The notes under the pieces were generated by a model. The model saw only the letters and a list, made by a program, of their open reading frames with translations. It did no database searches and was not told the DNA's origin. From positions 62,001-126,000 of the forward strand of contig CBFFRQ010000067.1 in NCBI GenBank assembly GCA_965644315.1: a DNA stretch of 64,000 nucleotides, written 5' to 3'. Made by a program: the position numbers and the translations under genes. This stretch comes from Caecitellus pseudoparvulus (lineage: Eukaryota; Protista; Bigyra: Bicosoecida). Below are positions 9,373-64,000 of this stretch, in pieces; position 1 is the stretch's first letter, and the number at the start of each line of letters is the position of its first letter.

Positions 9373-10620
9373 ATGGCAAGCCGGCGAGATGAGAAAGTGG
9401 AGATGGAGGCGCAGGAGTGGATGGAGGCCATCATGGAAGAGGTGCGTGGTGTCAGAGGGGCGCCCCTCGCGCGACGACGTGAAACGTGGTTGGCGGGTTG
9501 GAAGCCGAGGCGACCGCCCAGCACGCCCAGCCGCGACGCCTGTGCAGGAGTTCCCCGCTGATTTTGAAGAGAGCTTGAAAGATGGCGTGCTGTTGATCAG
9601 GTGAGCCTGCCTGCACGCGCTGCGCCTGCGGGTTGGCGCTTGGACGGTGAAGCAGCACTGGCGTGAGGTGCGCCCCATCGCAGGTTCCTCAACACCATCA
9701 AGCCAGGGTCCGTGAAGAAGTACAACCACCCAGTGCGCCTGCCGATTCACGCGGCGGAGAACGTCACCAAGTACCTCAAGGCAGTGCGCAAGAAGTTCGG
9801 CGTGGACGAGTACCAGATGTTCAGCACGGTGGACCTGAGCGAGGGCAAGAACATCTACCAAGTGGCATCCCACCTGCACGCCCTGGGCCGCACCATCCAG
9901 AAGAAGGTGGAGGACGAAGGCTTCCCCTGGAAGCCCGAGTGGCCCCACCTGGGCATCAAGGAGACCAAGAAGAACGTGCGCACGTTCACAGAGGAGCAGC
10001 TGCGCCGAGCCGCCGCCCAGCCCAGCATCCTGAACATGGGCTCCTCTCGCACGGGGCGCAAGCAGGCAGAAGACGTGCTGACGGGGGAAGCTGGGCGGGA
10101 CCTGCCCCGTGAGAAGGCCACCATCACCAAGGTGGGGGGTGGGGCGGGGAAGGCAGCAGGGGGGAGCAAGGCAAGTGCGGGTGCAGCCGAGGACCCCAAG
10201 GCAGCTGCCAAGGCTGCGTGGAAGGCGAAGATGGCTGCTAAGAAGGCAGGGGCCGCAGCACCTGCTCCAGCTGCTGCAACGTCTAGCGTGCCAGCTGGCT
10301 GGGAGGAGCTGTACACGGACGATGGCACGGTGTACTACTACAACTCCAGCACGGGCGAGACACAGTGGGAGATGCCGAGTGGTGGGGGTGGTGGCGGAGG
10401 GGGTGTGCCAGCTGGCTGGGAGGAGCTGTACACGGACGATGGCACGGTGTACTACTACAACTCAAGCACGGGCGAGACACAGTGGGAGATGCCGAGTGGT
10501 GGTGGGGGTGGTGGTGGGGGTGTGCCAGCTGGCTGGGAGGAGTTATACACGGACGATGGCACGGTGTACTACTACAACTCAAGCACGGGCGAGACACAGT
10601 GGGAGGCGCCTTCAGGCTAG
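9373..10620 (+). CDS. Calponin-homology (calponin/MP20-like) protein with three C-terminal WW domains
   Basis: Introns at 9442-9547 and 9601-9683 give MASRRDEKVEMEAQEWMEAIMEE|EFPADFEESLKDGVLLIR|FLNTIKPGSV..ENVTKYL..MFSTVDLSEGKN (CH domain), then RTFTEEQLR (calponin-like), then three copies of VPAGWEELYTDDGTVYYYNSSTGETQWE. Confidence 0.9.
10288..10620 (+). repeat. Three near-identical 117-bp WW-coding tandem repeats
   Basis: GTGCCAGCTGGCTGGGAGGAG starts at 10288, 10405 and 10522 (period 117), with poly-Gly linkers. Confidence 0.95.
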
Positions 10621-17740: not shown

Positions 17741-20278
17741 TTGCTGCGCCCTGTGCAGGCGGAGACGAAAGACGCAGGCGCAGCTTCAGGCGCAGGGACT
17801 GCTGAGGCGCCTGCGGGGCCGGACCCTGAGGTGGCGTTGAAGTGCCTGCAGAAGTTGCAGTGTGCTCCAGGGCAGGAGATGAAGCAAGCTCCAGCGCTGC
17901 GTGGCCTGGCAGCACTCGGGGGTGAGAACGTTCCCAAAGTTGATGATGGGGAGAAGACGTCTTTGGAGTTGGCTGACTTGGAGGACTTGCTGAGTGTCGC
18001 AGGTGGTGCTCTTCTGGACCGAGCTGGTGGGCTGAAGGGCCAGCTGCAGCGCCGTGCACTGTGCGATGCGCTGCAGTACCTGTCCTTCCGGTGCTTCAGT
18101 GCTCTGGAGGTGCTGCGGCAAGTGGCGTCAGGGGCGACTGAGGCGAAGGTCCCAGCTGGAGATGCGCTGTGGGGCTCCATTAGGGACGCTTGGGGCAGTG
18201 TGCAGGCGGAGGGGGGGGATCTGGAGGGTGAGAAGCTGGAGGGTGCGTTGGCGGATGTGACGCGTTGGTGGTTGAATTTCAAAGCGGGTCCAGAGCAAAC
18301 GCTAAAAGACCCACCTGAGCTGACCCACGATAAGGCTGGCAAGGAGGCCATGGATGCTGCGATGGAGTCCATGAAGCAGCAGGCCAAGTGGTTGGCTGGA
18401 GAAGGTGCAGGTAAGCTGCGGAGCACAGACGCTGAATCTTCATTACGTGAAGCAGCCTTGGAATCCGAGAAACTACAAGGTCTCCTGAGTTGTGCAAAGG
18501 CGGCTAATCTCAGCAACCTGGATTCTGTGAACGGCATCGATCTCCCACCTAACGTCAAGTGTTTGAACAGCACGGTGGAAGCAAAGGTCTCTGCTCCAGT
18601 GAGCGTCTACTCAACGTTGGGCATCATTGAACCCAATGGACACACAAAGGTGAGCAATGTCGAAGAATGGGCGGGAGATCTGAAAAAGGGTGCGTCCACG
18701 TCCGCGCAAAGCATCGCTGCGGTGAAGAAGGCTGAGCAATCCCGCATTACGCGAGGGCTGCCACAATTGGCGCAAACGGCGCTGCATGTTGCGTTACGAC
18801 ATGGCTGCACCTTTGGTGACTCTGAGGATCCGTTGGGTGCGTCAAGCACAGCTGATTTGCAAGTGCAGTGCGAGCAGTGCTGGCCATTGAGTGCGTTCGT
18901 GAGAAGCGATCCATGGAAAGATGTTGAGCCGGGGCCGAAAGAGCAGTTGTACTTGATGATCCTCGGAGCCTGCGCCGTCGCTGAGGCTTGCAACGTCAGC
19001 CTGCACGGCGTGAGACTGGACAGCTTTGTCATCCAGGGCGTGGCATCTTCCTCCGTCGGAGACCTCGTGGAAACGTTGAGAGGCGGGAAGTGCCACGTGC
19101 TGTTGAGCGCGTGCTCGTCCATTTGGTTGAAACCCAGTGAGGAGGACAGTGAGAGCGGGGCAGCCACTGAAGCCGGTGCGAAGGAGGGCACCAGCGAGGG
19201 CAAGCCTGGTGAACGTTTGATCGCCGTGCTGGACGAAGTGCTGCCAGTGACCCAGCCAATTCCTGCAGTGGCAGACACAAAAGCTAGGCATCGTGGTGGA
19301 CAGGCTGCGGAAGGACAGAAAGATGGTGGTGTCTTCCTGAGCCACGACACTGCAGGGAGCAAAGATTTAGATGATGCACGTGGCTGTTTGACAGGAGATG
19401 GGCGTGCGATCTTCATGGCAGCATATGCCACCGCATTCAAGGAACTTGGCTGTAGTACAAGTCAGATACGGGGGCTAGATGTATCTCTTAAGGAGCTAGC
19501 CGAGAAGAAGGCCGCAGAAGTCGAGCAACAGCGTGCACAAGACACTGCGGCTTTTATCCAAGCCTGCTCCACCGGCGAAGTTGACAAAGTCCAGGAGCTG
19601 CTGGCCTTGAAGGGAGACCGGGCTATCGATGGGCACGCAAACATTGACAAAGCCTTCCAATTGGCTTGTGAAAAAAAGCACAAGGCTGTGGCGGATGTGC
19701 TGTTGAAGCACGTCGGGGACCGCAAGATCCCGAACGGTCAGGCGGCGTATGACAAGGCGTTTGCAGCACCAGCTCCGGCACCAGCTCCAGCCCCAGCACC
19801 GAAGCCAGCTCCAGCTCCAGCTCCAGCTCCAGCCCCAGCTCCGGCACCAGCCCCAGCTCCGGCACCGAAGCCAGCTCCAGCTCCAGCTCCAGCTCCAGCT
19901 CCAGCACCAAAGCCAGCTCCGGCACCAGCTCCAGCCCCAGCACCGAAGCCAGCTCCAGCTCCAGCTCCAGCTCCAGCTCCAGCACCAAAGCCAGCTCCGG
20001 CACCAGCCCCAGCCCCAGCACCGAAGCCAGCTCCAGCCCCAGCTCCAGCTCCAGCTCCAGCACCAAAGCCAGCTCCGGCACCAGCCCCAGCCCCAGCACC
20101 GAAGCCAGCTCCAGCTCCAGCTCCAGCTCCAGCTCCAGCACCAAAGCCAGCTCCGGCACCAGCCCCAGCCCCAGCACCGAAGCCAGCTCCAGCCCCAGCT
20201 CCAGCTCCAGCTCCAGCACCAAAGCCAGCTCCGGCACCAGCCCCAGCACCAGCAGCAGCTGCAGCTGCAGCGAAGTAG
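17741..20278 (+). CDS. Protein with a possible degenerate kinase-like segment, two ankyrin-like repeats and a long (PA)n-K tail; 5' exons unresolved
   Basis: 845-codon frame entered at a TGCAG acceptor near 17759. Ankyrin-like AAFIQACSTGEVDKVQELLALKGDRAIDGH/AFQLACEKKHKAVADVLL, then about 170 aa of Pro-Ala repeats. Confidence 0.7.
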   Translation: MLRPVQAETKDAGAASGAGTAEAPAGPDPEVALKCLQKLQCAPGQEMKQAPALRGLAALGGENVPKVDDGEKTSLELADLEDLLSVAGGALLDRAGGLKGQLQRRALCDALQYLSFRCFSALEVLRQVASGATEAKVPAGDALWGSIRDAWGSVQAEGGDLEGEKLEGALADVTRWWLNFKAGPEQTLKDPPELTHDKAGKEAMDAAMESMKQQAKWLAGEGAGKLRSTDAESSLREAALESEKLQGLLSCAKAANLSNLDSVNGIDLPPNVKCLNSTVEAKVSAPVSVYSTLGIIEPNGHTKVSNVEEWAGDLKKGASTSAQSIAAVKKAEQSRITRGLPQLAQTALHVALRHGCTFGDSEDPLGASSTADLQVQCEQCWPLSAFVRSDPWKDVEPGPKEQLYLMILGACAVAEACNVSLHGVRLDSFVIQGVASSSVGDLVETLRGGKCHVLLSACSSIWLKPSEEDSESGAATEAGAKEGTSEGKPGERLIAVLDEVLPVTQPIPAVADTKARHRGGQAAEGQKDGGVFLSHDTAGSKDLDDARGCLTGDGRAIFMAAYATAFKELGCSTSQIRGLDVSLKELAEKKAAEVEQQRAQDTAAFIQACSTGEVDKVQELLALKGDRAIDGHANIDKAFQLACEKKHKAVADVLLKHVGDRKIPNGQAAYDKAFAAPAPAPAPAPAPKPAPAPAPAPAPAPAPAPAPAPKPAPAPAPAPAPAPKPAPAPAPAPAPKPAPAPAPAPAPAPKPAPAPAPAPAPKPAPAPAPAPAPAPKPAPAPAPAPAPKPAPAPAPAPAPAPKPAPAPAPAPAPKPAPAPAPAPAPAPKPAPAPAPAPAAAAAAAK
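19765..20275 (+). repeat. Coding (CCAGCN)n minisatellite with a 78-bp higher-order unit
   Basis: CCGAAG recurs at 19865, 19943, 20021, 20099 and 20177 (period 78 bp, 26 aa = PK(PA)6PK(PA)5). Confidence 0.9.
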
Positions 20279-42671: not shown

Positions 42672-42850
42672 TCAACAGTGCCGCTGGCGAGCTGTGCGTC
42701 TCAGAACCGCAGCTGCCCACGCAAACTGCGCGGAGGATTTAAGACAGACGGCTTGAACAAATGCAGTGCTTCTGTAGCAGCTTGCTTGTGTGTGCTGTGC
42801 CCCGGGACTATGGAAAGCTGAGAAAGGCGCGGCGTGACGCTATTGGTTTG

Positions 42851-45800
42851 CGCTCCTGCAGCTCTTGACAGGCGCTGCACTGTCGGGCTCCGAGGCAAAG
42901 GAAGTAGTGGGCTGCAGGTAGACTGCTTTCAGGCACATCAGATATCGCTCATCTACTCGAGTGATGGAGCTGTGCGCAGAGGAGGATGGCACGCAAGCAT
43001 GTCGCCTGCTCGATGCAGGCGAACAGCTCGCGAAACACAGCGTGTGGCGTCTCATGCACATGTTCGCCCCAATCCAGCACTGATGCTCGCTGCATGCATT
43101 TCTGTGGAGATACGACCGAGCTCCATTGTTGCTGTCCGTTGTCTTCCGGCTCTGTAGGTGGCCCAGCCCGAAGTGTGCACAACTCGTGGAGCACACATCA
43201 AGATACAACCTCAACACAGCGGCGCCGTCCCTGCGAGGAATTCCACCAGCCCCCTTCGCACCGAGACACTGCGTGACCAGTTCCAGTCACTTCACTTCAG
43301 CGGATCCAGTAGCTGTGGCATCTTCTTGTCGAGTGACCGCATCTCGGGAGGCAGGAGTCCCGTTCCAAACACGCCAAAGCAGCCGGGAACGTCAACTTGC
43401 TCTGGTTTCAGGCGAAAGTGATGCTTTTCATGACACGAGTAGTGAACGAAGAAGAGCTCAACGTCGCCAACATCAGTGATGAGCTGTGTCAGGGGCAGGT
43501 CCGGTTCCACTCCTTCAGCTGCTCGCTGTGGCCTGAGCAGGCGCCAAGTGTCGGCGTGCACACGAGACCGCTGATCTGGATCCAGCAGTCTTGGTTCCAT
43601 GATGATCCTCTCGAACCTTTCCTCATCGTCGCATTTGACCCTACAGTTGAGGTCGATGGGCACACCGAAGGCCCACAGGATGGCATTCGCAAGTGTGGTT
43701 GTGTCCCTGCCGATGGTCGTCGAGTCCCGAATCGTCACTTCCTTGTCACCAAGCTCTGATGCGTAGTTCAGGGGGCAAGCAAGTGCAGTGATGCTGTGCA
43801 GATTCGTGGGAATGCCCCTGCTCCATGTTTCTGGGCATCCAGGCTCAACGTTGAGGTGTCTGGCGTCCCACGTGGGCTCTGGCGCCCGCTGGCGTGGCGG
43901 TGGTGGGAGGGGCAGCACGAACGCGACCTGCAGCTTCGCGGGGCACGCCTGGCTTTCTTCATCTTCAGGGCGCCTGAACACGAGGAAGTCCAGGCCTGGT
44001 ATGAGGTGCCTTGTGTTCACCCTGCATACCTCCCCAGGGTTCAGGTGCTGCACACCACCCACATAATCAGCTGATAGGCCCTTGCCCTGAAGTGCCTGTG
44101 GGGCGTAGTAACGCAGGGCAGGTTTGAGGCTTGACTTGTCCGAGTAGCTGCACAGGAGTTTGTTCGGCTCCCTGCTTGGCTTGGTTGACATGTGTGTGTA
44201 CTCCGAGCCGAACATGCCCAGCTCGACAAGCGCAGCTACCATGTCAAAGTGATCCGCCGAGTGATAATGAAGTCTAGGGATTTCCTTCAGGAGAAACTCC
44301 CAATTTTGGCGGCATTCCTCGTCAGCGTGATCGCCCGCGGCCTCACCGTGCCGTCTCGCGAGCGCCCTCACAAACGCTTGCGCTGCAATTTCGGACACAT
44401 ACCTATGCTTGCGTCCAACCTCGATTTGGTTGCGATCATCTCGAACGATCATGGAGGCAGCGGACATGCACCGTTGGAACACGTGTGAGGTGTATCCGCC
44501 CACCGGCAACAGTTTGACAGAAATGGAGCTGGAAAGCTCACGGAAGCACCGCTCTTCCATCTCGTCTCGAATGCCTCTCCACACGGACACGGCTCTGTAC
44601 GAGAAGGACACGTCGTCCACGAAGTCTTCATAGTCCATGCGACTGCTGGCTAGCTGTTGTCTGAGCTCCTTGCTCAGTCGGGGAGCTGCACTTCCCACAG
44701 ATTCAACATAGCTGCGGAACGTGTCCATGCTGGGGGACCAGTCCAGCTCTTTCAAAGCGAACGCTGGCAGCTGCAAGTCGCAGTCAACACCTGCTGGCAG
44801 GTCCGCTGCAGTTGCGATCTCCTGAGTGGGAGCTGAGGTATCGTCAGGCCCTTTCAGGCCCAGCATCAGTTTGCGTGCGAGTTTCGGACTGACGCCCTTC
44901 AGCTCAACGAAGGCGTTTTCTTTCTCCAAACCGAGTCGATGGCGCAGCATCTTTTGCACATAATAATTCTTCCGCCGGTCATGTATGGCAACGTGGAAGT
45001 CAGGGGCGTATGCGAAGACCCTGCTTGAGTTGACCCCACACCTGAACAGCCACCGGAGCAGTTTGCACCATTCCTGATGTTGCTTGGGTTCCTCTCGAAG
45101 AAGGGTCTGCACAACATCGGCATCGTCAATGATTAAGCCTGTGGGCAGAACGTCTGGACGGTGGAACCCCAAGTAGCTGACAAAGGAGGCTTGTCCGTCC
45201 ACGAACAAGCGGCTGAGAGCTCTGTGTGCGTCAGCGCCTTCCAGGTCGATGGACGCAATGTCGTGGCACACCTTGGGACTCCGCACGGCAGGCCCACAGG
45301 AGAGCGAGAAACCGCCGTGCATGAGTCTGTGCGGAAGGGCGGCGAAGTCAGGATCGGATGGCACAAGCACACTTGAGCGCGGCAAGTACATGACGTCGCC
45401 GCCAGCTCCGATACCGATGATCATCGCCAGAGTCTGGAGCAGTGCAGACTTGCCCACGCCGCGCGGACCAGTCAACATGGTGCCTTGTTCTTCGCTGAGG
45501 CAAGAACGTGCCACTTTGGTGAGCATGTCGGCCCGGTCTTGTGTGAGCACGAAGGTCATCACTCCCAACTCCTCGTGGTCACTGGGGTCATCCGGCATCG
45601 GGCAGAGACCGTACGTCGTTGGGCGCAGTCCTCGCACCGACAGGTCACCAAAGGGAAGGGAGGTCAGCAGAGGCTTGCCGCGAATGGGTGAAAAGAGGTC
45701 GGTGTTCCACGTGGGCAGCCGGAGCACGACGGCTTGTACCCGACCGTCAACATACACAGGGTAGCACCCTGTGCTCCATGCATGCTCTTGTTTGCCATCT

Positions 45801-47571
45801 GAAGGGCCGCTGCTGGTTGTGTTTTTTGCAGTCCAGCTCTTGAGATCCTCAAGACCGAGCCAGAGCGGGTACATACAGTCCTTCCCAGCTTCCTTGAAGA
45901 ACTCGCCCGCATGGACAAGCCACCCGAAGTTGTCGGCCAGGGTGGTGAGGGTGACCTGGTCGGTGCTGAGAATGTCCTGGATGAAGTCCTCGTCGGTGAC
46001 GCCAGCCTTGCGCAGGTGCGAGTCTGCAGCCTCCCTTCCCTCCATCGCGAGAAGCAGCAAGGCGCGAAGAGGAACTCCCATGTTCACGACACCACAGGAC
46101 TGGATTCTTTGGTTGAACCAGGCAGAGCGAGCGGCATGCTCGAGATCTTCCTTGAAGTACCGCCTGCGGAAGTCACCCACGTCGTCCGGGAGGAGCTTCT
46201 TGCACAAAGGGCCTGAGTCCCTTCTCGCAAGCTTTGCCACTGAAGTGGAGCACAAGTCTGTCACAATCTTCAGCCGGTCCTTGGCGTCGGGTTCCTTCTC
46301 AATGATGTGGAAGACTGTGCGCATGATGCCACTGCCTTCCAAGATTGACCACTCCTCACTTGGCGTGTGTTCCTGTGCATCAGGAGCGTGGCATTCGGAA
46401 GACCTGACAGAACAGCACCCTTCTCCTCATGCAACATAACGAGTCAGTCGTACCTTGCAAATCTTCAGGGCTGAGTCCTCTGTCTCCCGGAAGTGGTGTG
46501 GCTCGCGAAGCACCGCCAGCACCTTCCGCTGAACCTGCAGTGCTCGGGCTTCTTTCTCACGACGTTCGGGGTCGTCAATTTCGTCGAGCTGCTCGTCTTC
46601 CTCCGCAGCTACCATGGCAGACTTGTGCGCTTCATGGAGGTGCTTTGCTAAGTGACTGTCCCACACTTTACAGTCTGGGAGCCTTGCCTCGATGCCCAGG
46701 GTGTGCAGCAACTCGCCATTCTCAGCCAAGGCCAAGGAGTCGTCCAGAGGCAAGGCGGCAAGCGAGGCAATGAGGTTTGTCATCATGTCTGGCGTACAGA
46801 AAGGGTAGCGCAGGTCCCGCTCGACCTGAGCAATGAAGCCACTGAGCACAAAGCCTCGCACTGTCGTAACGTTCGGCGGAGTCTGTGTGGGCGCGGAAAC
46901 AGCGACTCAGCGTCTTGTGCCGTGCACATGGACAAAGTGCAGAGAGGCAAACACACGCTTAGCGTCTTGAGAGCGTTCAGTGCCGTCTGGAGTGAGGGGC
47001 GTTCTGGATCGATCCACTCCAACCCTTCCAGGAGTTTCGCCTGCGCATTCTCGTCCAGTTGAGACCACCAAGGCAGCGTCGGCAGCACGTCACTGGCAGT
47101 GACGGGTGACTCCCGCACAGCGTCAGGCTCGGTGGACGCGAAGCGCGCGGGCTGCGTGGCATGGGCGGCAGGCCACACCACCGCCCCGCTGATGGTGCGC
47201 AGGGCATATTCCGCAGTGACTCCGGGGCAGCCACAGGTGGCCCGCCACACCCGTGCTGGGAGGCGTCGGAGCACGGATGCTGCGGTGTGCATGGTTGGGG
47301 TGTTGTGGCTGGTGTCAGGCGGGCGGTCAGTGCGGGCGTGCGGGGGCAGGGGTGTGGTGGTGCTGGTCAGGTGCCTGGCGGTCAGGGCGGTGCAGTACCG
47401 CCGGGCGAGGGCGTGGCGCGTGTGGATGTGAGGCAGTGCGGCAGGCTGGACCAGCACAGGTGTGCTGTGTATGCGTGAGGGTGTGTGGTGGTAATTGTGA
47501 AGTGCGGGCGTGTGGGAGTGCGAGTGGTGGCGTGGGGTCGGGCCAATGTTTGCGTGCCGCGAATGATGCAG
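42851..47571. repeat. Direct repeat copy 1 (about 4.7 kb) of the tandem segmental duplication
   Basis: Begins CGCTCCTGCAGCTCTTGAC and ends GCCGCGAATGATGCAG. It is colinear with 49719-54471 at an offset of about 6.87-6.90 kb. Confidence 0.95.
43292..47292 (-). CDS. Paralog A: presequence-like leader + helical domain + P-loop NTPase + degenerate REase-like domain (Crinkler/RHS-like), about 1281 aa
   Basis: Exons 47292-46957, 46882-46454 and 46372-43292, with phase-0 GT-AG introns of 74 and 81 nt. Walker A LTGPRGVGKS, Walker B LIIDDAD, RYVSEIA, and PGLDFLVF. Confidence 0.8.
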
Positions 47572-48080
47572 GGTGCACAGGTGCGATGGGGCTTGGTGGG
47601 AGTGTCACGATGCGATGGTGGAGACGTGTGAGGTGTACGGAGAGTGTCATGACTATGGTGTGGGGAGCGGTACGAAGGCTCCTTGGGCCTGTGGCTTTAG
47701 TCCCTGGCTGTCAGGGTGGGTGTGGCCGCGGTGCAGCGTGCCAGGGTCAGGGCCACAGCGGCATGTGCTGCATTGGATGCGAATGTGCGTGGGCAGGGTC
47801 CACGCCAGCGATTGGTATCAGGTTGTGTGCTGACTTGGCACTCCGCCTGGTGTTTGCAGCACACCGGGTCCGCAGAAGTGGAGAGTGGGCCGAGCCGTTG
47901 CTGCTGTGGAAAGTCGGCGACGTGGGGGTTGAGTTGGATTGCGTGTGTACATGCCGGGAGTGGGTTGTGAGTGGGTCCGGCGCCATTCTGGTCCGGTTGG
48001 GAGCCAGGCAAGCGTGACAGAGCGTTCGCCATTGGTGATCGCAGGGAATGATGGAACTTGAGTGGTGGCTTGGGCAGAGG

Positions 48081-49284
48081 CTAAGCAAAATAACGCTCCG
48101 CATCATACTGAACGTTACGAATACCGACATGAAGAGTGTGCGCTACTTTTTCAGGTGTTTTGTCTGGTACAAGCTCTTTGAATAATGCTGTGTAGTTTAT
48201 GGTTGCTAGCTGGTGGACAGTCATTGAGCTGAGTCTCGACACAATCCTAACCCGTTCGTTAGCCGTTGCTTCGCTTTCCAGCATCTTCAGTGAAGTCTCA
48301 ATGATGCCACATTCTCGCATGATCGCCCAGCCCTCCCAGTATGCAGCTTCCTGCAAATGACGAGTACAACCCCGCGCAAGTTCATCAGCTTCAGGCTCTC
48401 ACACAAAACCACCAGCTCACAATTCACTCACCCTGCATGCCTCCAGTGCAGCCTCGTTGGCCTCGGCCTTCTCTGCTGCCAAACGACGCGCTGCTTCCTC
48501 CTGCTGTTGCTGCTCAAGCACTCGAGCGTCACGCTCCAGCTGGTGCTTTAGCAGGACTTTGTTAAGCTCGACTTCTGCCTGTCGATGCATGTCCACATAC
48601 GTGCTCGCTCGGCGTAGGTACTCTGGCAGGTCTTCGGCCCAAGCCTCTGTCACCTGCATCGTCATCTTTGCTGGGAGTTGCTGGAGGAGTTGGCCACGTT
48701 GAGCAAGCCTCATGGACGCTTCGATGGGGGTCGCGAACAGGAATGCAAGCAAATGTGACTTGATCTCATCTCTGCATGGCTCAGCTTGACTGATGCCAGC
48801 ATCAAGGTATCCGACGAAGCCGCTGAGCACCAACCCGTGCACCAAGCTGACGTCTGGAGGAGCCTGTGAAGCCGTGGGGGCAGCAAGGCTTTGGGTGCAC
48901 GGCGGCCCTGCACAGGCTCAGCCCTCTGGCTGGCCGACGCACAGACATGACTTTGAATGCTTCCAGGACACATGTGACGCCATACTCTCCTTCACTCTGC
49001 TCTACCTCCTGCATGACCTGCAGCAGCTTCGCCCGCTTCCGGCTGCCAGCCTTGGACCACCAAGGCAGCGTCGGCAGCACGTCACTGGCAGTGACGGGTG
49101 ACTCCCGCACAGTGTCAGGCTCGGTGGACGCGAAGCGCGCGGGCTGCGTGGCATGGGCGGCAGGCCACACCAACGCCCCGCTGATGGTGCGCAGGGCATA
49201 TTCCGCAGTGACTCCAGGGCAGCCACAGGTGGCCCGCCACACCCGTGCTTGGAGGCGTCGGAGCACAGACGATGCGGTGTGCAT
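48081..49284 (-). CDS. Paralog B: short form with the leader and a diverged helical domain only, about 347 aa, no NTPase
   Basis: Exons 49284-48943, 48863-48432 and 48350-48081, with phase-0 introns of 79 nt (GTGCGT..CAG) and 81 nt (GTGAGT..CAG) at the same positions as in A and C. APPDVSLVHGLVLSGFV aligns to TPPNVTTVRGFVLSGFI, and WAIMRECGII aligns to WSILEGSGIM. Confidence 0.75.
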
Positions 49285-49667
49285 GGTTGGGGTGTTGTGG
49301 CTGGCGTCAGGCGGGCGGTCAGTGCGGGCGTGCGGGGGCAGGCGTGTGGTGGTGCTGCCAAGAGGCCTGGCGGTCAGGGCAGTGCAGTGCAATGCAGTGC
49401 AGTACCGCCGGGCGAGGGCGTGGCGCGTGCGTGCGAGGCAGTGCGGGCCGTGCCGGGGCCGGAGAGGCTTGGTGCTGATTGTGGTGTCAGGTGGTGTGGT
49501 GAATGGTGGTAATTGTGAAGTGCGGGCGTGTGGTGGGGTCAGTGGTGGCGTGGGGTCGGGCCAATGTTTGCGTGCCGCGAATGATGCAGGGTGCACAGGT
49601 GCAATGGGGCTGGGTGGCAGTGTCGCGATGCGATGGTGGAGACGTGTGAGGTGTACGGAGAGTGTCA
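49055..49667. repeat. Third copy of the upstream region plus leader-coding segment
   Basis: Highly similar to 47063-47649 and about 53956-54471. Similarity stops abruptly at the LPWWS codons. Confidence 0.9.
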
Positions 49668-49718
49668 AAGTGACGGTGTTGGGAGTGTCGTGCCGGCATC
49701 ATTGCAGGTGCAGCATCG

Positions 49719-52700
49719 CGCTCCTGCAGCTCTTGACGGGCGCTGCGCTGTCGGGCTTCGAGGCAAAGGGAGGAGTAGACTTTGCATGTACTGCATTCAC
49801 GCACTTCAGACATCGCTCAACTGCTTGGCTGATGGAGCCGTGGGCAGATAAGGAAGGCACACAAGCAGCTTGCCTGCGGGACGCACTCTGACAGCCCGCG
49901 AAACTGAACGTGCGGCGCCTGACGCACAGGTCCACCCCAATCCAGCACTGATGATCGCTGTATGCATTTGGAGAGGCATGACCGAGCTCCATTGTCGCCT
50001 TCCGTTGTCTTCCGGGTCCACAGGAGGCCCAACCTGAAGTGAGCACAACTTGTGGCACTTACTCCGAGGCACAGCCTCGGCAACGCAGCGCCATCCCTGC
50101 GAGGAATGCCACGACCCTCCTTCCCACCGAGGCACAGCATGACCTGTTCCACTTGCTTCAGTCCAGCGGATCCAGTAGCTGTGGCATCTTCTTGTCGAGT
50201 GACCGCATCTCGGGGGGGAAAAGTCCCGTTCCGAACACGCCAAAGCAGCCGGGAACATCAACTTGCTCTGGTTTCAGGCAAAAGTGATGCTTTTCATGAG
50301 GCGAGTAGTGAACGAAGAAGAGCTCAACGTCGCCGACATCGGAGATGAGCTGTGTCAGGGGCAGGTCCGGTTCCACTCCTTCTGCTGCTCGCTGTGGCCT
50401 GAGCAGGCGCCAAGTGTCAGCGTGAACGCGAGACCGCTGATCTGGAGCCAGCAGTCTTGGTTCCATGATGATCTTCTCGAACCCTTCCTCATCGTCGCAC
50501 TTGACCCTGCAGTTGAGGTCGATGGGCACACCGAAGGCCCACAGGATGGCATTCGCAAGTGTGGTTGTGTCCCTGCCGATGGTCGTCGAGTCCCGAATCG
50601 TCACTTCCTTGTCACCAAGCTCTGATGCGTAGTTCAGGGGGCAAGCAAGTGCAGTGATGCTGTGCAGGTTTCTGGGGATGCCCCTGCTCCATGTTTCCGG
50701 GCATCCAGGCTCAACGTTGAGGTGTCTGGCGTCCCACGTGGGCTCTGGCGCCCGCTGGCGTGGCGGTGGTGGGAAGGGCAGCACGAACGCGACCTGCAGC
50801 TTCGCGGGGCACGCCTGGCTTTCTTCATCTTCAGGGCGCCTGAACACGACGAAGTCCAGGCCTGGTATGATGTGCCGTGTGTTCACCCTGTATACCTCCC
50901 CAGGGTTCAGGTGCTGCACACCACCCACATAATCAGCTGATAGGCCCTTGCCCTGGAGTGCCTGTGGGGCATAGTAACGCAGGGCAGGTTTGAGGCTTGA
51001 CTTGTCCGAGTAGCTGCACAGGAGTTTGTTTGGCTTCCTGCTTGGCGTGGTTGACATGTGTGTGTACTCTGATCCAAACATGCCCAGCTCGACAAGGGCA
51101 GCAACTGTGTCTTCATACTCTGCACCGTGGCTATCAAGGTTCAGAACGTCTTCAAGGACGTTGTCCCAACCTTGACGCACTTGCCCATTGACATGCTTGC
51201 CCGCAACCGTACCGTGCAGTCTCGCGAGCGCCCTCACAAATGCATGTGTGGCAGTGTGGGACACAAACCTGTGCTTGCCATCCACCGTGATCCGATGGCG
51301 TTCGTCCCGTGTGATCAGGGAGGAAGCAGACATGCAGCGTGGGAGGATGAAGGCAGCAGATGAGTAGCTTGAGAGTGGCAAGGAGCGCTCCCTGCCCACT
51401 GGTCGCAGGTTTCCATTCAGGGCACTGCATAGCTCACGGAAGCACCGCTGCTCCATCTCGTCTCGAATGCCTCTCCACACGGACACGGCTCTGTACGAGA
51501 AGGACACGTCGTGCACAAAATCTTCGTAGTCCATGCGACTGCTGGCTAGCTGTTGTCTGAGCTCCTTGCTCAGTCGGGGAGCTGCACTTCCCAGAGACGC
51601 AACAAAGCTGCGGAACGTGTCCATGCTGGGGGACCAGTCCAGCCCTTTCAAAGCGAACGCTGGCAGCTGCAAGTCGCAGTCAACACCTGCGGGTAGGTCT
51701 GCTGCAGTTGCGATCTCCTGAGTGGGAGCTGGGGTGTCGCCGAGCTCGGTCTGACCGAGCATCAGCATGTGTGCGAGTTTCGGACTGACGCCCTTCAGCT
51801 CAACGAAGGCGTTTTCTTTCTCCAAACCGTACTGATGGTGTAGCATCATCCTCACATGATCGGCCTTTCTCCGGTCATGTGTGGCAGCGTGGAAGTCAGG
51901 GGCGTAGGCAAAGACCCTGCTCGAGTTGAGACCACAGCGGAAGAACCACCGGAGAGTTTTCCACCATTCCTGATGCTGCTTGGGTTCGTTCCCAAGCAGA
52001 GTATGCAAGACGTCGGCATCGTCGATGAGAACACCATTGGGCAAGTATTCTCCTTGCGCGTCTCCAGCGCGCTTGAGGAAAGCAGATTCACGGTAGATCA
52101 GTCGGTCGAGGGCCTCATGTGCTTCTGCGCCTTCCAGGTCGATGGACGCAATGTCGTGGCATACCTTGGGACTCCGCACGGCAGGCCCACAGGAGAGTGA
52201 CAAGCCGCCGTGCATGAGTCTGGATGGGAGGGTGTCGAAGTCCTGGTCGGTCGGTGCAAGCACTCTGGAGCGTGGTAGGTACATGACGTCGCCGCCTGCT
52301 CCGATGCTGATGATCATCGCCAGAGTTTGGAGCAGTGCAGACTTGCCCACGCCACGTGGGCCAGTCAACAGTGTGCCTTGCTCGTAGCCAAGGCAGGAAT
52401 GTGCCACTTTGGTGAGCATGTCGGCCCGGTCTTGTGTGAGCACGAAGGTTGTCATGCGCAGCTGTCCACGGTAGCAGGAGCCATCCAACTCAGTGCGGAG
52501 ACCGTACGTTGTTGGGCGCAGTCCTCGCACAGACAGGTCACCAAAGGGAAGGGAGGTCAGCAGAGGCTTGCCGCGAATGGGTGAAAAGAGGTCGGTGTTC
52601 CACGTGGGCAGCCGGAGCACGACAGCTTGAACCCGACCGTCAACATGCACAGGGTAGCACCCTGTGCTCCATGCATGTTCTTGTTTGCCATCTGAAGGGC

Positions 52701-54471
52701 CGCTGCTGGCTGTGCTCTTCGCAGTCCAACTCTTGACCTTCTGAAGACCAAGCCAGGACTGGTGCCCGTATCCCTTCCCAGCTTCCTTGAAGAACTCGCC
52801 CGCATTGACAAGCCACCCGAAGTTGTCGGCCAGGGTGGTGAGGGTGTCCTGGTCGGTGCTGAGAATGTCCTGGATGAAGCCCTCGTCGGTGACGCCAGCC
52901 TTGCGCAGGTGCGAGTCTGCAGCCTCCCTTCCCTCCATCGCGAGAAGCAGCAGGGCGCGAAGAGGAACTCCCATGTTCACGACACCATGGGACTGGACTA
53001 GTAGGTTGAATGATGCAGAGCAAGTGGCATGCTCGAGGCCCTTCTTGAAGTACCACTTGTGGAAGTCACCCACGTCGTCCGGGAGGAGCTTCTTGCACAA
53101 AGCGCCAGAGTCGCTTCCCGCAAGCATTCCCACTGAAGTGGAGCACAAGTCTGTCACAATCTTCAGCCGGTCCTTGGCGTCGGGATCCTTCTTGGTGATG
53201 TGGAATACTGTGCGCATGATGCCACTGCCTTCCAAGATTGACCACTCCTCACTTGGCGTGTGTTCCTGTGCATCAGGAGCGTGGCATTCGGAAGACCTAA
53301 CAGAACAGCACCCTCCATCTTACGCAACGTAACGAGTCAGTCGTACCTTGCAAATCTTCAGGGCTGAGTCCTCTGTCTCCCGGAAGTGGTGTGGCTCGCG
53401 AAGCACCGCCAGCACCTTCCGCTGAACCTGCAGTGCTCGGGCTTCTTTCTCACGACGTTCGGGGTCGTCAATTTCGTCGAGCTGCTCGTCTTCCTCTGCA
53501 GCTACCATGGCAGACTTGTGCGCTTCATGGAGGTGCTTTGCTAAGTGACTGTCCCACACTTTACAGTCTGGGAGCCTTGCCTCGATGCCCAGGGTGTGCA
53601 GCAACTCGCCATTCTCAGCCAAGGCTAAGGAGTCGTCCAGAGGCAAGGCGGCAAGCGAGGCAATGAGGTTTGCCATCATGTCTGGTGTATGGAAAGGGTA
53701 GGACAGGTCCCGCTCGACCTGAGCAATGAAGCCACTGAGCACAAAGCCTCGCACTGTCGTAACGTTCGGCGGAGTCTGTGTGAACGCGGAAACAGCGACT
53801 CAACGTCTAATGCCATGTATATGCACAGAGTGCAGAGAGGCAAACACACGCTTAGCGTCTTGAGAGCGTTTAGTGCTGTCTGGAGTGAGGGGCGGTCTGG
53901 ATCAATCCACTCCAACCCTTCCAGGAGTTTCGCCTGCTGATTTTTGTCCAGTTGAGACCACCAAAGCAGCGTCGGCAGCACGTCACTGGCAGTGACGGGT
54001 GACTCCCGCACAGCGTCAGGCTCGGTGGACGCGAAGCGCGCGGGCTGTGTGGCATGGGCGGCAGGCCACACCACCGCCCCGCTGATGGTGCGCAGGGCAT
54101 ATTCCGCAGTGACTCCGGGGCAGCCACAGGTGGCCCGCCACACCCGTGCTGGGAGGCGTCGGAGCACGGATGCTGCGGTGTGCATGGTTGGGGTGTTGTG
54201 GCTGGCGTCAGGCGGGCGGTCAGTGCGGGCGTGCGGGGGCAGGCGTGTGGTGGTGCTGCTCAGGTGCCTGGCGGTGCAGTGCAGTGCAGTGCCGTCGGGC
54301 GAGGGCGAGGGCTTGGCGCGTGTGGATGTGAGGCAGTGCGGCAGGCTGGACCAGCACAGGTGTGCTGTGTATGCGTGAGGGTGTGTGGTGGTGGTTGTGA
54401 AGTGCGGGTGTGTGTTGCTGCGAGTGGTGGCGTGGGGTCGGGCCAATGTTTGCGTGCCGCGAATGATGCAG
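49719..54471. repeat. Direct repeat copy 2 (about 4.75 kb) of the tandem segmental duplication
   Basis: Colinear with 42851-47571. Confidence 0.95.
50158..54185 (-). CDS. Paralog C: presequence-like leader + helical domain + P-loop NTPase + degenerate REase-like domain, about 1290 aa
   Basis: Exons 54185-53850, 53775-53347 and 53265-50158, with introns of 74 and 81 nt. Walker A LTGPRGVGKS, Walker B VLIDDAD, RFVSHTA, GAEYEDTVAAL, and PGLDFVVF. Confidence 0.8.
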
Positions 54472-54780: not shown

Positions 54781-56142
54781 TCAGCCCAGTGCTGCAGCTC
54801 TGAAGTACATGATTCGAGCACGACCCTGCCGAGTGCTGGTGCCGTTCCAAACCGCATCCTTTGCTGCTCGTGCGGCAGTGTTCCCTGCTTGAAGCCTGGC
54901 TCGTAGAGGGGCAGCCCGAGGCCCCGCCAGGGCAAGCAGCTCCCGCACAATGCCGACGTGTCCGTTCTTCACTGCAGATCGAAGGCCAGCGTCGGGCCCT
55001 TGTCTGTCCGGGGCATGCACGTCCACTTCACGGGAATCGTTCAATGCAAGTAAGTCGCACACGACCTGGAAATGCCCGTTGCGGCAAGCCCACCGGAACG
55101 CAAACTCCGGGCCAGCTCTGTCGCCGGCATGTACATCGACAGCCTGTTCGCTCGTCAACGCAAGAAGCTCTCGCACAACTTCGACGTGGCCGTGACGGCA
55201 GGCTGTCTTGAAGGCAGCCTCGGACCCGGTCACGTCGCCCACGTGGACATTCACTGCATGGCCATGCGCTGACGCAAGGATGAGGCGCAGTACCCCCACG
55301 TGCCCAAACTCACACGCGCCAAGGAATCCAGACTCCAGGACGCCGGCACTGCCTGTGCCGCTCCCCACCTGTCGATTGCCTTCAAGACTTAGCAACGCAG
55401 CCACCACGCCCACGTGCCCTCCTGCACACGCTGCCCGGAAGGCGGATCCATCGTCTGTCCACACGTCAATTGTTCGGTCGCCATCTAGGCTCAGCAGCTC
55501 CCGCACGATCGCCGCATGCCCTTCAACACAGGCCCGCCTGAAGCTGGCCTCAGGCCCAGTCTGATCACCTGCATGCACGTCCACTGCTCGCTCACCCGTC
55601 AGTGCCAGCAGCTCGCGCACGACATGCAAGTGTCCATGGCGGCAGGCTCGACGAAGCGCTGCTTCGGGCCCATCCCAGTCCTCCGCGTGGACGTGAACAG
55701 CACGGCTCCCACTCAGTGCGAGTAGCTCACGTACCACTTCCACGTGGCCGTTCTGGCAGGCCCATCTCAGAGCGGCAGCAGGCCCAACGGCACTGCCCAC
55801 ATTCACGTCGATGGCTCGCTCCCCGGTCAGGTCTAGCAGCTCGCGCACGACTGTCACGTGGCCTGCTTTACATGCTGCCCTGAAACCAGCTTCAGGACCA
55901 ACAGCGTCTGTAACGTGTACATCCACTGCGGCCGCCCCTGTCAGGGCCAGTAGAGCACGCACCAGATCTGTGTGGCCAGAGGCACATGCGACGAGAAAGC
56001 CAGCACTTGTGTCGGCCGACGTCAGGGTGTGCAGGTCACACCCAGACGTCTGCATGATTCCGTTGAGGATATCCATTAGACGTGGTGCATCCTGGGTGCG
56101 GCAGGCGGCTTTCCACTGCCGCGCGTAGGCGCTGGGGTCCAT
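54781..56142 (-). CDS. Ankyrin-repeat protein with about 10 atypical 38-aa repeats
   Basis: Repeats of A(A/G)FR.AC..GH..VVRELLAL.G.RAVDVH.GD..GPE. Likely start MDPSAY at 56142. Confidence 0.9.
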   Translation of the reverse strand: MDPSAYARQWKAACRTQDAPRLMDILNGIMQTSGCDLHTLTSADTSAGFLVACASGHTDLVRALLALTGAAAVDVHVTDAVGPEAGFRAACKAGHVTVVRELLDLTGERAIDVNVGSAVGPAAALRWACQNGHVEVVRELLALSGSRAVHVHAEDWDGPEAALRRACRHGHLHVVRELLALTGERAVDVHAGDQTGPEASFRRACVEGHAAIVRELLSLDGDRTIDVWTDDGSAFRAACAGGHVGVVAALLSLEGNRQVGSGTGSAGVLESGFLGACEFGHVGVLRLILASAHGHAVNVHVGDVTGSEAAFKTACRHGHVEVVRELLALTSEQAVDVHAGDRAGPEFAFRWACRNGHFQVVCDLLALNDSREVDVHAPDRQGPDAGLRSAVKNGHVGIVRELLALAGPRAAPLRARLQAGNTAARAAKDAVWNGTSTRQGRARIMYFRAAALG

Positions 56143-56710
56143 ACTTGTTGCTATGGCGTGGTGAAGGCCAGATTCCGCAGCCCCCCCTCGTAGTGCTGCC
56201 CGATTTGCGGGCAGGCGTTCAACTCCCGACACGCACAGTACCATGAAACTGACCCCTCTATGGCGCGTCATACATCGGTTGTTTCATCGGTTTGGTTTTG
56301 ATCCCTCATTGAAGCCGGGAGCCAAATAAAGTTTGCAAGGTCATTTCACCCCAGAGCCGACCTCTTGCAGCACCCAAGGGAGGCAACCAAGGTACGTACG
56401 CGCACCTCCCTTTATGGAAGAAGGATGCTACACCGTCACACCATGAAAGGCGGGCGGAGGGCCTTGGTTTTTAGGATAGGATACTCGCTTCCGCGCCTGC
56501 TGGATGCTCAGTCTTCATGATCCCCGCCGAAGTCACACTGTATCGATTGAACCAAAACCTAACATTTAACAAAGGATAATACGTTTCTTGAATGCTCTCT
56601 GCAGCACGCTTGTGGCTCATCGTAAGGCAAGTCAGGGTGCAGGGGCAGGCACTGCTTGGCTGGGTGTGCTGCAATTTCCGCGCTATCCGGTGGCTGGGCG
56701 TTGAGCCACC

Positions 56711-61268: not shown

Positions 61269-64000
61269 ATGGATAATGAAGATGCTGATCTGGCCAGGGC
61301 TCTGGCCATGAGTCTGCAGGACGCTGTGGAACAGCCACACCAGCTGCCACCGTCTGGCCCAAGCGTGCCACCCACCATCAGCGGAGCAGGCACGGTGGCG
61401 CCTGTGCAGCCAACTGCAGCGAATGGGCGCATGCCTGAGCCGCTAAGCAACACGCTGCATGCGATGTACGACCCTCAGGTTGTCAATCTCGTGACTCACG
61501 ATGACGACCCTGAGACCGCACCAGCTCGACCTCATGCCGCCAGCAGCGGGGACGCCCAGCCCAAAGCAGACACGCCACCTCCACACCCGTACGCCGATGC
61601 GCACGGGACCCTGGCATGCTACGAGCCCATGTCGTACTCACCGCTTCTTTCGGGTCTCACTCTGAGTGAGCCGCTTCCCAAGCCGCCCCCTTCAAAGCAC
61701 GGCGCCACCCCTGCCAAGCATGCTGGCGATGCTGTGGAGTCGAGCGCCGGAGACGGAGGTCATGCCGTGGAGCCAGACACAGTGCACGACCTTGCAACAC
61801 TCGTGCGTGACTGGACCGCCGAGCTGCATGACATCCTGGACCTCACACCCCTGTCCCTGGAGCAAGCCGCCATGCGAGAGGGCGCCCTCACGCGCATCAG
61901 CTCAGCCTTCGTCGCGGCCTGTGCGCCCATCGCGGAGATCCTCGTAGCCGAGCTGCCTCTGGCCGATGCCCAGAAAAGTCTGCCGCCCATCGACATCGGG
62001 GGTGTGGCAGGGGGCAGCAAGTACATCCTGGGCGGTGTCCTGTTCAAGTTCGCTGTGGATACAGAGGGAATGTACGGGCACAACCACAGCGAGGCTGCCA
62101 AAGCAGCCAAGGCTGAGCTACGAGGCATATCCAGCATCACTGCAGCAGCGGTGCCGGGGCTGCGGTATCCCCTGCACTGTGTGGTGGATGTGCTCGGGTA
62201 CAGGGTGGTGGCCACATCCCTCCTGCCCATCGGCAGCGACACCCTCTGCTACGGCAGTGCCAACGCAATGGTCACAGTGCACGACGACGAGGAGGCCCTG
62301 CGATCTTCCATCGCACAACTGGCGGCGCATCTGAACCTGGCACGACACCCTGTGGGCGACAAGCAGCTGTACTTGGCCGGGGATGTGGAGGGGCACTGCG
62401 GGCGGGATGGGCACATGTTCTTGCTGGACACAGCCAGGCTCATGCCTCCGGAGGCGCCTCCACAGTGGCAGGCAGCTACGTGCATTGTGCCTGTACCAGG
62501 TGCACATAATGGTGTGCGGCTGTTGCGAGTGCCAGTGGATCAACGGGCAGCCTTTGGGCAGCATGTATGGGCAGCGTTGGTGGGTGCCGCGTTGCCTGAC
62601 CGCGTGGTGCCTTGTGAGATGCCTGCGAACCCAGGGACTGTGTTAATCACGAGCGTGTTGCCGTTCGCCAATGTGGTGTGTTGCGCCTTGAATGTGCCTG
62701 CACTGCTGCAGCACTTGAGGAGGTGCGGGCTGGAGGCTTCCGCGGTGGAGCATGCCGAGCGGGTCCTCGCCCAACCAACGCGAGTTGCAGCAGGGCTCGC
62801 TCGTGATGGGCAACCTGCTCAGCGTGGGCCTCTGTTGATGGTGCCCGTGCGCCCCAAGGCAGCGCACCTGACTCAGCTGCTGCGCCTTGAAGCTGTACAG
62901 GCGTCGCCTGTCCCTCTGTCAGCTGATGCCTTCACGGGCTGGGGAAGCACCGACTACCACGTATACAACCCACCTGTTCAGCGTGCCACAGATGCGATGC
63001 TAGAGAGGTCCCTGCCCCAGCTGGCTGCACAGCTCATTCAGCGCGCCACAGGGGGTCGCTTGGCTGTGTGGAAGGCTGGGGACTGTGTGGGCGCCGATGC
63101 TACAGCGGCTGGGCACGTCGTTGACCACGAGAGCTCACCAAGTCGACGTGACGATGCATTCACCTTTCCCGAGTGGACGGTGGAGCGGGGAGAGTTCTCC
63201 ATGAATCGCCTGCTGCGAAAGGAGTTTGGATCAGACAAAGAGGGTGCTGCTGGCCTGGACGCTGAGCCTGGTGATCAAGTCGCTGCTCCCCAGCCGTCAC
63301 TGGAGCATGCCACCGAGGTGCTGGGGGAGTACGCTGCCCAGGGGTATGATACCCGTGCCACTGTAGCGGCACTGCAGGCACACGGACTGGGGGCACTGAA
63401 AGCTGTGCCACTTGCGCGAGGAGCGCCGCCCGTCAGCATCGCTGCCTCCCCACACTTGCCGCTGTTGGTGCCTGCAGTCCCACAAGGGTCCCTGCAAGAT
63501 GACGCGCTAGCACACGCTCTGTCCAGTGTTGACCACGTGTACGTGCGAGAGCTGGACTGGAAGCTGCACTTGCACTCGGCTGGCTGCAACACGCGGCATC
63601 TCGGCCGCCTGGCCCATGTCATTCGAGTGCTGCTGCAGGTGCATGCAGCTGCCGTGAGGTGCCTGCCAGAGTCCGCTGTGGCGGCACTACAGGCCATGCA
63701 GCACAGCATGCTCGCGTACGGCATCGCGCGGTGTTTCTATGCTGAGCTGCGATCGGCGTTGCGGGGCGTGACGGCGCGAGTGGCTGATCGCGGCGAGTCC
63801 AGCGAGTCATCTGAGCAGGTGATGCAGTCCGCTGCACAGTTGGCCCATGACAGCGCCGAGGCGTTGTTCACGTCTCGGCTGCAGTACTCTGGCGTGGGGG
63901 GCAGCAGCTACAGCAGTGATGTGCAGGAGCAGACCCGGCTGCTGGCGTCCTTGCTTGGGAAGTACCCTGGTCTTGTGCCGCCGGAGGAGTGGGCACTGAC
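61269..64000 (+). CDS. Clu-domain (clustered mitochondria family) protein with an N-terminal ubiquitin-interacting motif, truncated by the window edge
   Basis: ATG 61269 gives MDNEDADLARALAMSLQD (UIM). The same frame gives GGVAGGSKYILGGVLFKFAVD..AAKAAKAELRG..YPLHCVVDVLGYRVVATSLLPI..TLCYGS..LNL..H..DVEGHCGRDGHMFLLDTARLMPPE, and later LLRLEAV..PLSADAF and LHSAGCNTRHLGRL. It is absent from the ORF track, presumably because it has no stop in the window. Confidence 0.88.
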   Translation, partial: MDNEDADLARALAMSLQDAVEQPHQLPPSGPSVPPTISGAGTVAPVQPTAANGRMPEPLSNTLHAMYDPQVVNLVTHDDDPETAPARPHAASSGDAQPKADTPPPHPYADAHGTLACYEPMSYSPLLSGLTLSEPLPKPPPSKHGATPAKHAGDAVESSAGDGGHAVEPDTVHDLATLVRDWTAELHDILDLTPLSLEQAAMREGALTRISSAFVAACAPIAEILVAELPLADAQKSLPPIDIGGVAGGSKYILGGVLFKFAVDTEGMYGHNHSEAAKAAKAELRGISSITAAAVPGLRYPLHCVVDVLGYRVVATSLLPIGSDTLCYGSANAMVTVHDDEEALRSSIAQLAAHLNLARHPVGDKQLYLAGDVEGHCGRDGHMFLLDTARLMPPEAPPQWQAATCIVPVPGAHNGVRLLRVPVDQRAAFGQHVWAALVGAALPDRVVPCEMPANPGTVLITSVLPFANVVCCALNVPALLQHLRRCGLEASAVEHAERVLAQPTRVAAGLARDGQPAQRGPLLMVPVRPKAAHLTQLLRLEAVQASPVPLSADAFTGWGSTDYHVYNPPVQRATDAMLERSLPQLAAQLIQRATGGRLAVWKAGDCVGADATAAGHVVDHESSPSRRDDAFTFPEWTVERGEFSMNRLLRKEFGSDKEGAAGLDAEPGDQVAAPQPSLEHATEVLGEYAAQGYDTRATVAALQAHGLGALKAVPLARGAPPVSIAASPHLPLLVPAVPQGSLQDDALAHALSSVDHVYVRELDWKLHLHSAGCNTRHLGRLAHVIRVLLQVHAAAVRCLPESAVAALQAMQHSMLAYGIARCFYAELRSALRGVTARVADRGESSESSEQVMQSAAQLAHDSAEALFTSRLQYSGVGGSSYSSDVQEQTRLLASLLGKYPGLVPPEEWAL

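Follow-up and report, generated by a model that had tools for sequence, protein, structure and literature searches.

What is a short gene doing between two long ones that share its beginning? The question is raised by contig CBFFRQ010000067.1 of the bicosoecid Caecitellus pseudoparvulus (assembly GCA_965644315.1), of which we analysed a stretch of 64,000 nucleotides (nt; forward-strand positions 62,001 to 126,000), hereafter the window, whose own numbering is used throughout. Three minus-strand genes, C, B and A, lie here head to tail, with an ankyrin-repeat gene and a kinesin gene as neighbours. Modeled from the DNA sequence alone by means of GT..AG splice sites, gene C (50158..54185; exons 54185-53850, 53775-53347 and 53265-50158) encodes 1290 amino acids (aa), gene B (48081..49284; exons 49284-48943, 48863-48432 and 48350-48081) 347 aa, and gene A (43292..47292; exons 47292-46957, 46882-46454 and 46372-43292) 1281 aa. 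Each gene carries two phase-0 introns at matching positions; intron 1 measures 74, 79 and 74 nt in C, B and A, and intron 2 measures 81 nt in all three, so that the initial annotation is reproduced here in strand, protein lengths and intron layout. The long proteins consist of a leader, a helical N-domain, a nucleoside triphosphatase (NTPase) of STAND type, a helical region and a degenerate C-terminal domain resembling a restriction endonuclease (REase), while B has the leader and the N-domain only. The answer that we favor, quite possible though short of probable, is that the locus samples a recombining tandem array of STAND NTPases resembling Crinkler/RHS-type (CR) proteins, interspersed with short N-domain paralogs and likely mitochondrial, in which the short proteins tune the long ones or serve as decoys for them.

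The first step is to ask whether B is a gene at all, and we judge the short gene class to be maintained. B runs without an internal stop or frameshift to a clean end at AERYFA*, as had been described; this end was placed opposite RRRYFK of A (A 324), but it aligns about 15 residues further on, opposite A 339-344 (AWFNQR), that is 5-10 residues ahead of the family's conserved core, which begins at A 349. In the 3' flank of B (47650..48080, minus strand) no remnant of the NTPase core was detectable by profile or tblastn (best E 0.14). A neutral simulation at 0.2 substitutions per site preserved an open frame across the 270 diverged codons of B in 0.55% of its runs. Among 40 of the 95 variants listed from other sequencing runs, six of the eight in exon 2 are silent, an excess with a binomial P of 0.003-0.025 for an expected silent fraction of 0.24-0.35. 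Together with the short versions found in five of six runs (below), these observations uphold the view of B as a maintained, N-domain-only paralog. No internal repeat was detected in the N-domain, and a weak search among 7996 candidates returned no longer homolog of B exon 2.

The stretch was found in 24 listed runs, comprising six organism labels and marine metagenomes, and six of them (X1, X5, X3, X10, X12 and X15) were compared over B; the first five represent five study codes, two of which may belong to one campaign. All five carry both long and short sequence, including two differing short versions over B, here called B' and B''; X15 has no contig on B, which is no proof of absence. The replaced segment spans 48046..48361 on the minus strand. 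B' differs in intron 2 and in the first 19 codons of exon 3 (48294-48361), with two compensating one-base gap pairs, and by hand reading its splice acceptor is kept, as are its frame, W266 and G273-S278. B'' matches B exactly over 48280-48495, has 239 other letters in place of the 234 of 48046-48279, and then rejoins the 3' flank of B, so it too is without the core. In X12, at a depth of 2.6, 30 letters of B'' could be read in frame, with seven of 11 residues kept, four of them through silent changes; a contig of X10 over 47988-48160 shows four differences, every one outside the coding part. By hand reading, the replaced exon-3 stretches are in frame and stop-free wherever their letters are readable. 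Over 234 nt the two short versions are more than 20% apart, although their 3' flank is common to both; such divergence, in frame where readable, indicates time spent as short genes. The middle of B exon 2 (48641-48816) has a further counterpart, diverged but of the same length, in X10 and X12, which may hold a third type of short gene.

How many genes, then, does the array contain? Relative to the kinesin-side flank, contig depth, which is not the same as copy number, is about 2.1x over B exon 2, 1.9-2.0x over the junction of the long-gene end with the B-side promoter and 2.95x over the long-gene 5' exons (in X3), and the ankyrin-side flank stands at 1.1x in X3 and at 1.9-2.0x in X1 and X5. 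Over 45689-45786 and 46388-46780, contigs of X1 and X5 differ from A at clustered sites, which points to a third long-gene version absent from the window. The simplest reading, and a likely one, is that the array in other samples runs long-short-long-short-long with a long plus a short gene as its repeated unit; no contig of the runs examined spans a long and a short gene in full. The doubled depth may also, instead of extra array copies, reflect diploid alleles beside a flank that is hemizygous. In the window, B is like B'' in its 5' part and like B' in its 3' part, and it may be a strain recombinant or a collapsed consensus. The long-short-long cluster of the initial annotation is thus present in the window, but the array may be variable or collapsed, and this order one of its states.

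The long genes bear traces of sequence exchange. By self-BLAST, A and C are duplicated from the promoter to the 3' flank with 87-90% identity (87% over 1634 nt at the gene ends and 3' flanks), whereas B matches in its 5' part only; the duplicated unit ends with the 3' flank of A (42850..43291, minus strand), which is homologous to that of C (49718-50157). The two proteins are 85% identical in a mosaic pattern, with a ratio of nonsynonymous to synonymous divergence (dN/dS) of 0.43; they share tracts of complete identity 209 and 158 nt long, whereas 2000 random placements gave none above 129. A further family member, P0003, is itself mosaic, resembling now A, now C along its length. The long identical tracts and the mosaic P0003 together indicate that gene conversion is active in the array. 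The N-domains of distant paralogs are only 21-37% identical ahead of the core conserved from A 349; a variable N-terminal header joined to a conserved core, in a family expanding with recombination, is what CR effectors display.

Conversion bears directly on what the three genes share at their 5' ends. The leader comprises 77 codons (A 47062..47292, B 49284-49054 and C 53955-54185, minus strand), close to the 75 or so first noted, and is 95% identical between B and A in amino acids, with four silent and four replacement changes. At codon 77/78 the identity falls at once to 27% over 267 codons (BLASTP E 5e-35). The upstream regions, described before as nearly identical, are similar (about 89-94% DNA identity) but contain several indels, none of which lies inside the leader. 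About 47 nt are identical in all three (A 47523..47571, B ~49541-49589 and C ~54423-54471, minus strand), some 230-280 nt upstream of the ATG, and these likely form a promoter element. Since gene conversion is active in the array, leader identity is by itself no proof of selection for co-regulation.

It is at this point that the role of B has to be weighed. A doubtful alternative would have B under selection without acting on A or C, either as an old core-less member that came to have the leader in common with A and C through gene conversion and now does a mitochondrial job of its own, or as a fairly recent truncation riding along in a birth-and-death array. The abrupt drop in identity at codon 77/78, from 95% to 27%, and the conversion tracts between A and C speak for it, as do the equal distance of B from A, C and a long paralog (P0006) and the failure of a weak search to find a short homolog outside this species. 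It is countered by the two short versions, so far apart and yet with a common 3' flank and in frame where readable, by the silent excess in exon 2, and by depth ratios suggesting that the short gene and the long-end/promoter junction were doubled together. Several further points weigh against the favored reading. Between B and the N-domain of A, dN is about 0.8 and dS about 1.6, so that the dN/dS of about 0.5 is computed with dS near saturation, and part of this divergence could predate the truncation. The variants of B that were classified number eight in exon 2, from 40 of the 95 listed. The second helical module of B is 29% identical to A and C and likewise 29% to P0006, and therefore gives no sign of B tracking its neighbors. 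The window's own combination of B was not seen among the contigs listed from the five runs. Gene conversion alone can keep promoter and leader alike, and the leader test described next considers composition only, with a weak control, the N-termini of relatives being too unreliable for comparison. A complex prediction for exon 2 of A with exon 2 of B scored 0.00; run without alignments and on part of the N-domain, it is evidence neither way.

Where would these proteins go? A basic, acid-poor and amphipathic N-terminus is typical of mitochondrial presequences. The first 54 residues of the leader hold six Arg and Lys and a single Asp or Glu, start with an amphipathic segment (hydrophobic moment 0.76-0.83) and close with the stretch R-F-A-S-T; among the 2363 windows of 54 aa taken from inside A and C, none is as basic and acid-poor, and no hydrophobic signal-peptide core is visible on inspection of the sequence. 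The leader of A, B and C is thereby likely a mitochondrial presequence. Mitochondrial targeting, as first proposed, agrees with this composition, but the near-identity of the three leaders can be explained by gene conversion alone. It is unlikely that the leader is non-mitochondrial and that A, B and C are CR-type effectors of the ordinary kind, whether cytosolic, nuclear or delivered, with a header that varies, an option that gains from the diversity of CR headers, which are often helical (PMC5289972), and from Atlas matches (0.89, as leads only) of the C-terminal part of the relative P0004 to Mucoromycota and Oomycota clusters. It loses from the leader composition, from the missing signal-peptide core and from the presence of the mitochondrial protein mS29 among the nearest solved folds.

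As for the NTPase itself, and as initially annotated, A and C contain Walker A (residue 557) and Walker B (669/670) motifs. A word-indexed search found one near-identical protein, labeled Symbiodinium sp. KB8 at NCBI, and a HMMER scan of 1.84 billion representatives nine relatives, all unnamed, the distant ones being 23-35% identical over the core. Related loci were not found in metagenome, viral or prokaryote genome contigs, nor in phages. Pfam gave only weak AAA/NACHT matches below cut-off and no Crinkler or RHS profile for A, C or family members, and PADLOC and NCBIfam gave matches at the level of Walker A only. An alignment-based model of A exon 3 (mean predicted local distance difference test, pLDDT, 65; predicted template modeling score 0.65) could be compared with 48,161 chains, while a single-sequence model (pLDDT 36) was unusable. 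The top matches are ribosome chains that we take to be mS29, the entry titles naming the ribosome only. The best of them reaches Z 11.1 with a root-mean-square deviation (rmsd) of 3.9 over 286 aligned residues, and others Z 10.9, 10.5 and 10.2. Archaeal STAND ATPases tie with them (Z 10.7, rmsd 4.7, 304 aligned; a second at Z 10.0), and DnaA, ORC and MuB follow just below. The predicted fold of A exon 3 is accordingly mS29-like in a tie with archaeal ATPases; Foldseek against PDB and viral models found no match at E<=0.001. In PMC8195603, CR-ATPases, S29/Dap3 and RNA12 are grouped within STAND, apart from the classic STANDs. The predicted fold together with this grouping supports placing the NTPase of A and C in the STAND subgroup that includes the CR-ATPases.

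The same matches suggest another, distinctly unlikely origin, in which the family derives from mS29/DAP3 and serves mitochondrial gene expression through RNA binding, the long proteins having gained domains and B being an accessory subunit. Its strengths are that mS29 chains occupy ranks 1, 2, 4, 5, 11 and 13, that their alignments start at model residue 147-150, some 80 residues ahead of those of most ATPases, and that the leader is of mitochondrial type. Its weaknesses are that a few other chains likewise align from about 150, that identity is 10-15% with archaeal STAND ATPases tied in Z, that DAP3 of Pfam has no match at E<=1 in 14 members and mS29 chains none by sequence at E<=10, and that multi-copy mosaic evolution is unlike a ribosomal protein. 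Unlike A and C, whose Walker A is intact, the family members P0009/P0014 show erosion of the Walker A lysine and of Walker B and end before the C-terminal domain; these are possible inactive NTPase partners, and they suggest that the family repeatedly yields pseudo-enzymes.

What the long proteins could do depends on their C-terminal domain. Three distant relatives (P0004, P0007 and P0008/13) contain a complete E...D...E-x-T/S pattern, which we take to be an REase motif. The REase catalytic pattern is given as E...D...ExK in PMC11342252. C lacks the last acidic residue and keeps two of three; A lacks the first and the last and keeps one, as is the case in P0003 and P0010, so that neither long protein has an intact catalytic set at the three aligned acidic positions. 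The predicted secondary structure (helix-strand-strand-strand-helix-strand) fits an REase core with insertions, and the domain likely adopts this fold; the structure match lists for A exon 3 were filled by the NTPase region and did not reach it, and the Atlas leads of P0004 mentioned above fall on unnamed clusters. At the degenerate strand, inspection by eye gave no support for a compensated frameshift or a concealed intron, P0003 having identical residues. Of the initially annotated Crinkler/RHS-type architecture with an REase fold, the STAND subgroup of the NTPase (by predicted fold), the motif in relatives and the suggestive secondary structure stand, but no Crinkler/RHS profile matched and the motif is degenerate in A and C.

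Because of this degeneracy, B as the antidote of a nuclease toxin is not the best reading. A selfish toxin-antidote element, in which only the presence of B would keep A and C from damaging mitochondrial nucleic acid and inheritance would be biased as a result, is improbable, for C lacks one and A two of the three putative catalytic positions, all five covered runs hold long and short sequence with no carrier/non-carrier polymorphism seen, and a shared promoter region would not obviously set toxin and antidote apart in time. In its favor are the tight linkage, the shared leader, the short versions in five of six runs, the intact motif in distant relatives and the precedent of the Medea1 architecture (PMC11342252).

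We return to the tuned or decoyed array and the way in which it might work. Given the shared promoter region and leader, joint production of the long and short proteins is likely, as is their import into mitochondria. The long proteins would be nucleotide-gated STAND switches, acting as nucleic-acid-binding sensors or assembly platforms, and their nuclease-derived end, probably non-cutting, would bind nucleic acid. B, through the shared helical N-domain, would dampen assembly of the long proteins or absorb the ligand of their header. Since the family is lineage-restricted, multi-copy and fast-changing, the likely setting is a defense or conflict role within the organelle, directed at an invader or at selfish DNA or RNA. 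We infer that the genes are expressed, that their products are imported and undergo oligomer switching, that a dead nuclease fold binds nucleic acid, and that B acts on A and C or on their ligand. A bolder version, which we regard as rather unlikely, holds that a CR-type NTPase-nuclease family was re-routed to mitochondria as long-plus-short cassettes, the header-only paralog being the dedicated inhibitor or decoy of its long neighbor, in an innate-immune or inheritance-control switch, resident in the organelle, that would bridge CR effectors and mS29/DAP3. A mitochondrial leader on a CR-type protein, together with a maintained header-only partner, would suggest that a protist mitochondrion houses conflict or defense machinery, and would provide a simple three-gene system for testing how truncated paralogs control STAND switches.

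The surroundings of the array deserve a brief description. Directly upstream of C lies an intron-free ankyrin-repeat open reading frame (ORF) of about 500 aa (54781-56283, minus strand). Contigs of many other copies, with many loose ends, map to it in all four runs, and summed depth at its 5' end is 10 to 30 times the flank; because of these copies we regard it as a member of a large repeat-protein family, one that could be linked to defense. Elsewhere in the window, a nested 18/42/78-nt tandem array (19764-20271), a Pro/Ala-rich coding repeat, closes a long ORF with a weak ankyrin match, and a 117-nt unit (10288-10605; 2.7 copies, 96% identity) translates by eye into something resembling a WW domain with a glycine linker. 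Rfam gave no match.

Finally, we ask which known systems the array resembles. Overall, the initial interpretation survives in its maintained N-domain paralog, presequence-like leader, STAND subgroup and mosaic array, while its antidote is weakened, its Crinkler/RHS label lacks a match, its leader is explicable by conversion and its gene order may be one state among others. N-domain-only regulators kept inside STAND-type receptor arrays are familiar from TIR-only and CC-only NLR paralogs and from CARD-only and PYD-only decoys. The present array differs from these in its NTPase clade and N-domain, in having no repeat sensor and in its likely organellar place. With mS29/DAP3, and with RNA12/Yme2 as mitochondrial STAND NTPases, it shares the best structural match to its NTPase and a presumed mitochondrial destination, whereas the long proteins show no sequence match to mS29/DAP3, are three times longer, have extra N- and C-terminal domains, and are multi-copy and fast-evolving.

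Among conflict systems, Tribolium Medea1 is described as CR-NTPase8 plus CR-REase7, and CifB nucleases are traced to such elements, in PMC11342252. The long proteins are like Medea1 in joining an NTPase to an REase-like domain, and the array is like Wolbachia CifA/CifB in linking long and short genes. B is a paralog of A and C, whereas CifA belongs to the HEAT-repeat proteins and is not related to CifB; the His three residues after Glu of CifB/CR-REase7 is not seen in this family; and, unlike Medea1 and Cif, the array is known from its sequence.

Most of what is known of CR-type proteins concerns effectors that are delivered and act in the nucleus, and mobile elements. The effectors combine a header, a CR-NTPase, a helix-turn-helix and an REase, according to PMC5289972, PMC11342252 and PMC11064341. 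A and C correspond to them in having an N-domain that is helical and variable, a P-loop NTPase assigned by predicted fold to the same STAND subgroup, a linker made of helices and a C-terminal REase-like motif, and in expansion with recombination in a eukaryote. They depart from them in the lack of any Crinkler/RHS profile match and in the degenerate nuclease motif, and the oomycete Crinkler header motifs LxLFLAK and HVLVxxP (ubiquitin-like header) are absent from the sequences of A, B and C. As no CR profile matched and the catalytic set is incomplete, we call A and C CR-like rather than CR members. No CR-type system with a mitochondrial leader and a header-only partner was found in the literature, which is weak evidence of novelty, the family lists of Zhang et al. 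(2016) lying outside the search. What distinguishes the array from the known CR class is its presequence-like leader together with the interleaved, apparently maintained, header-only paralogs.

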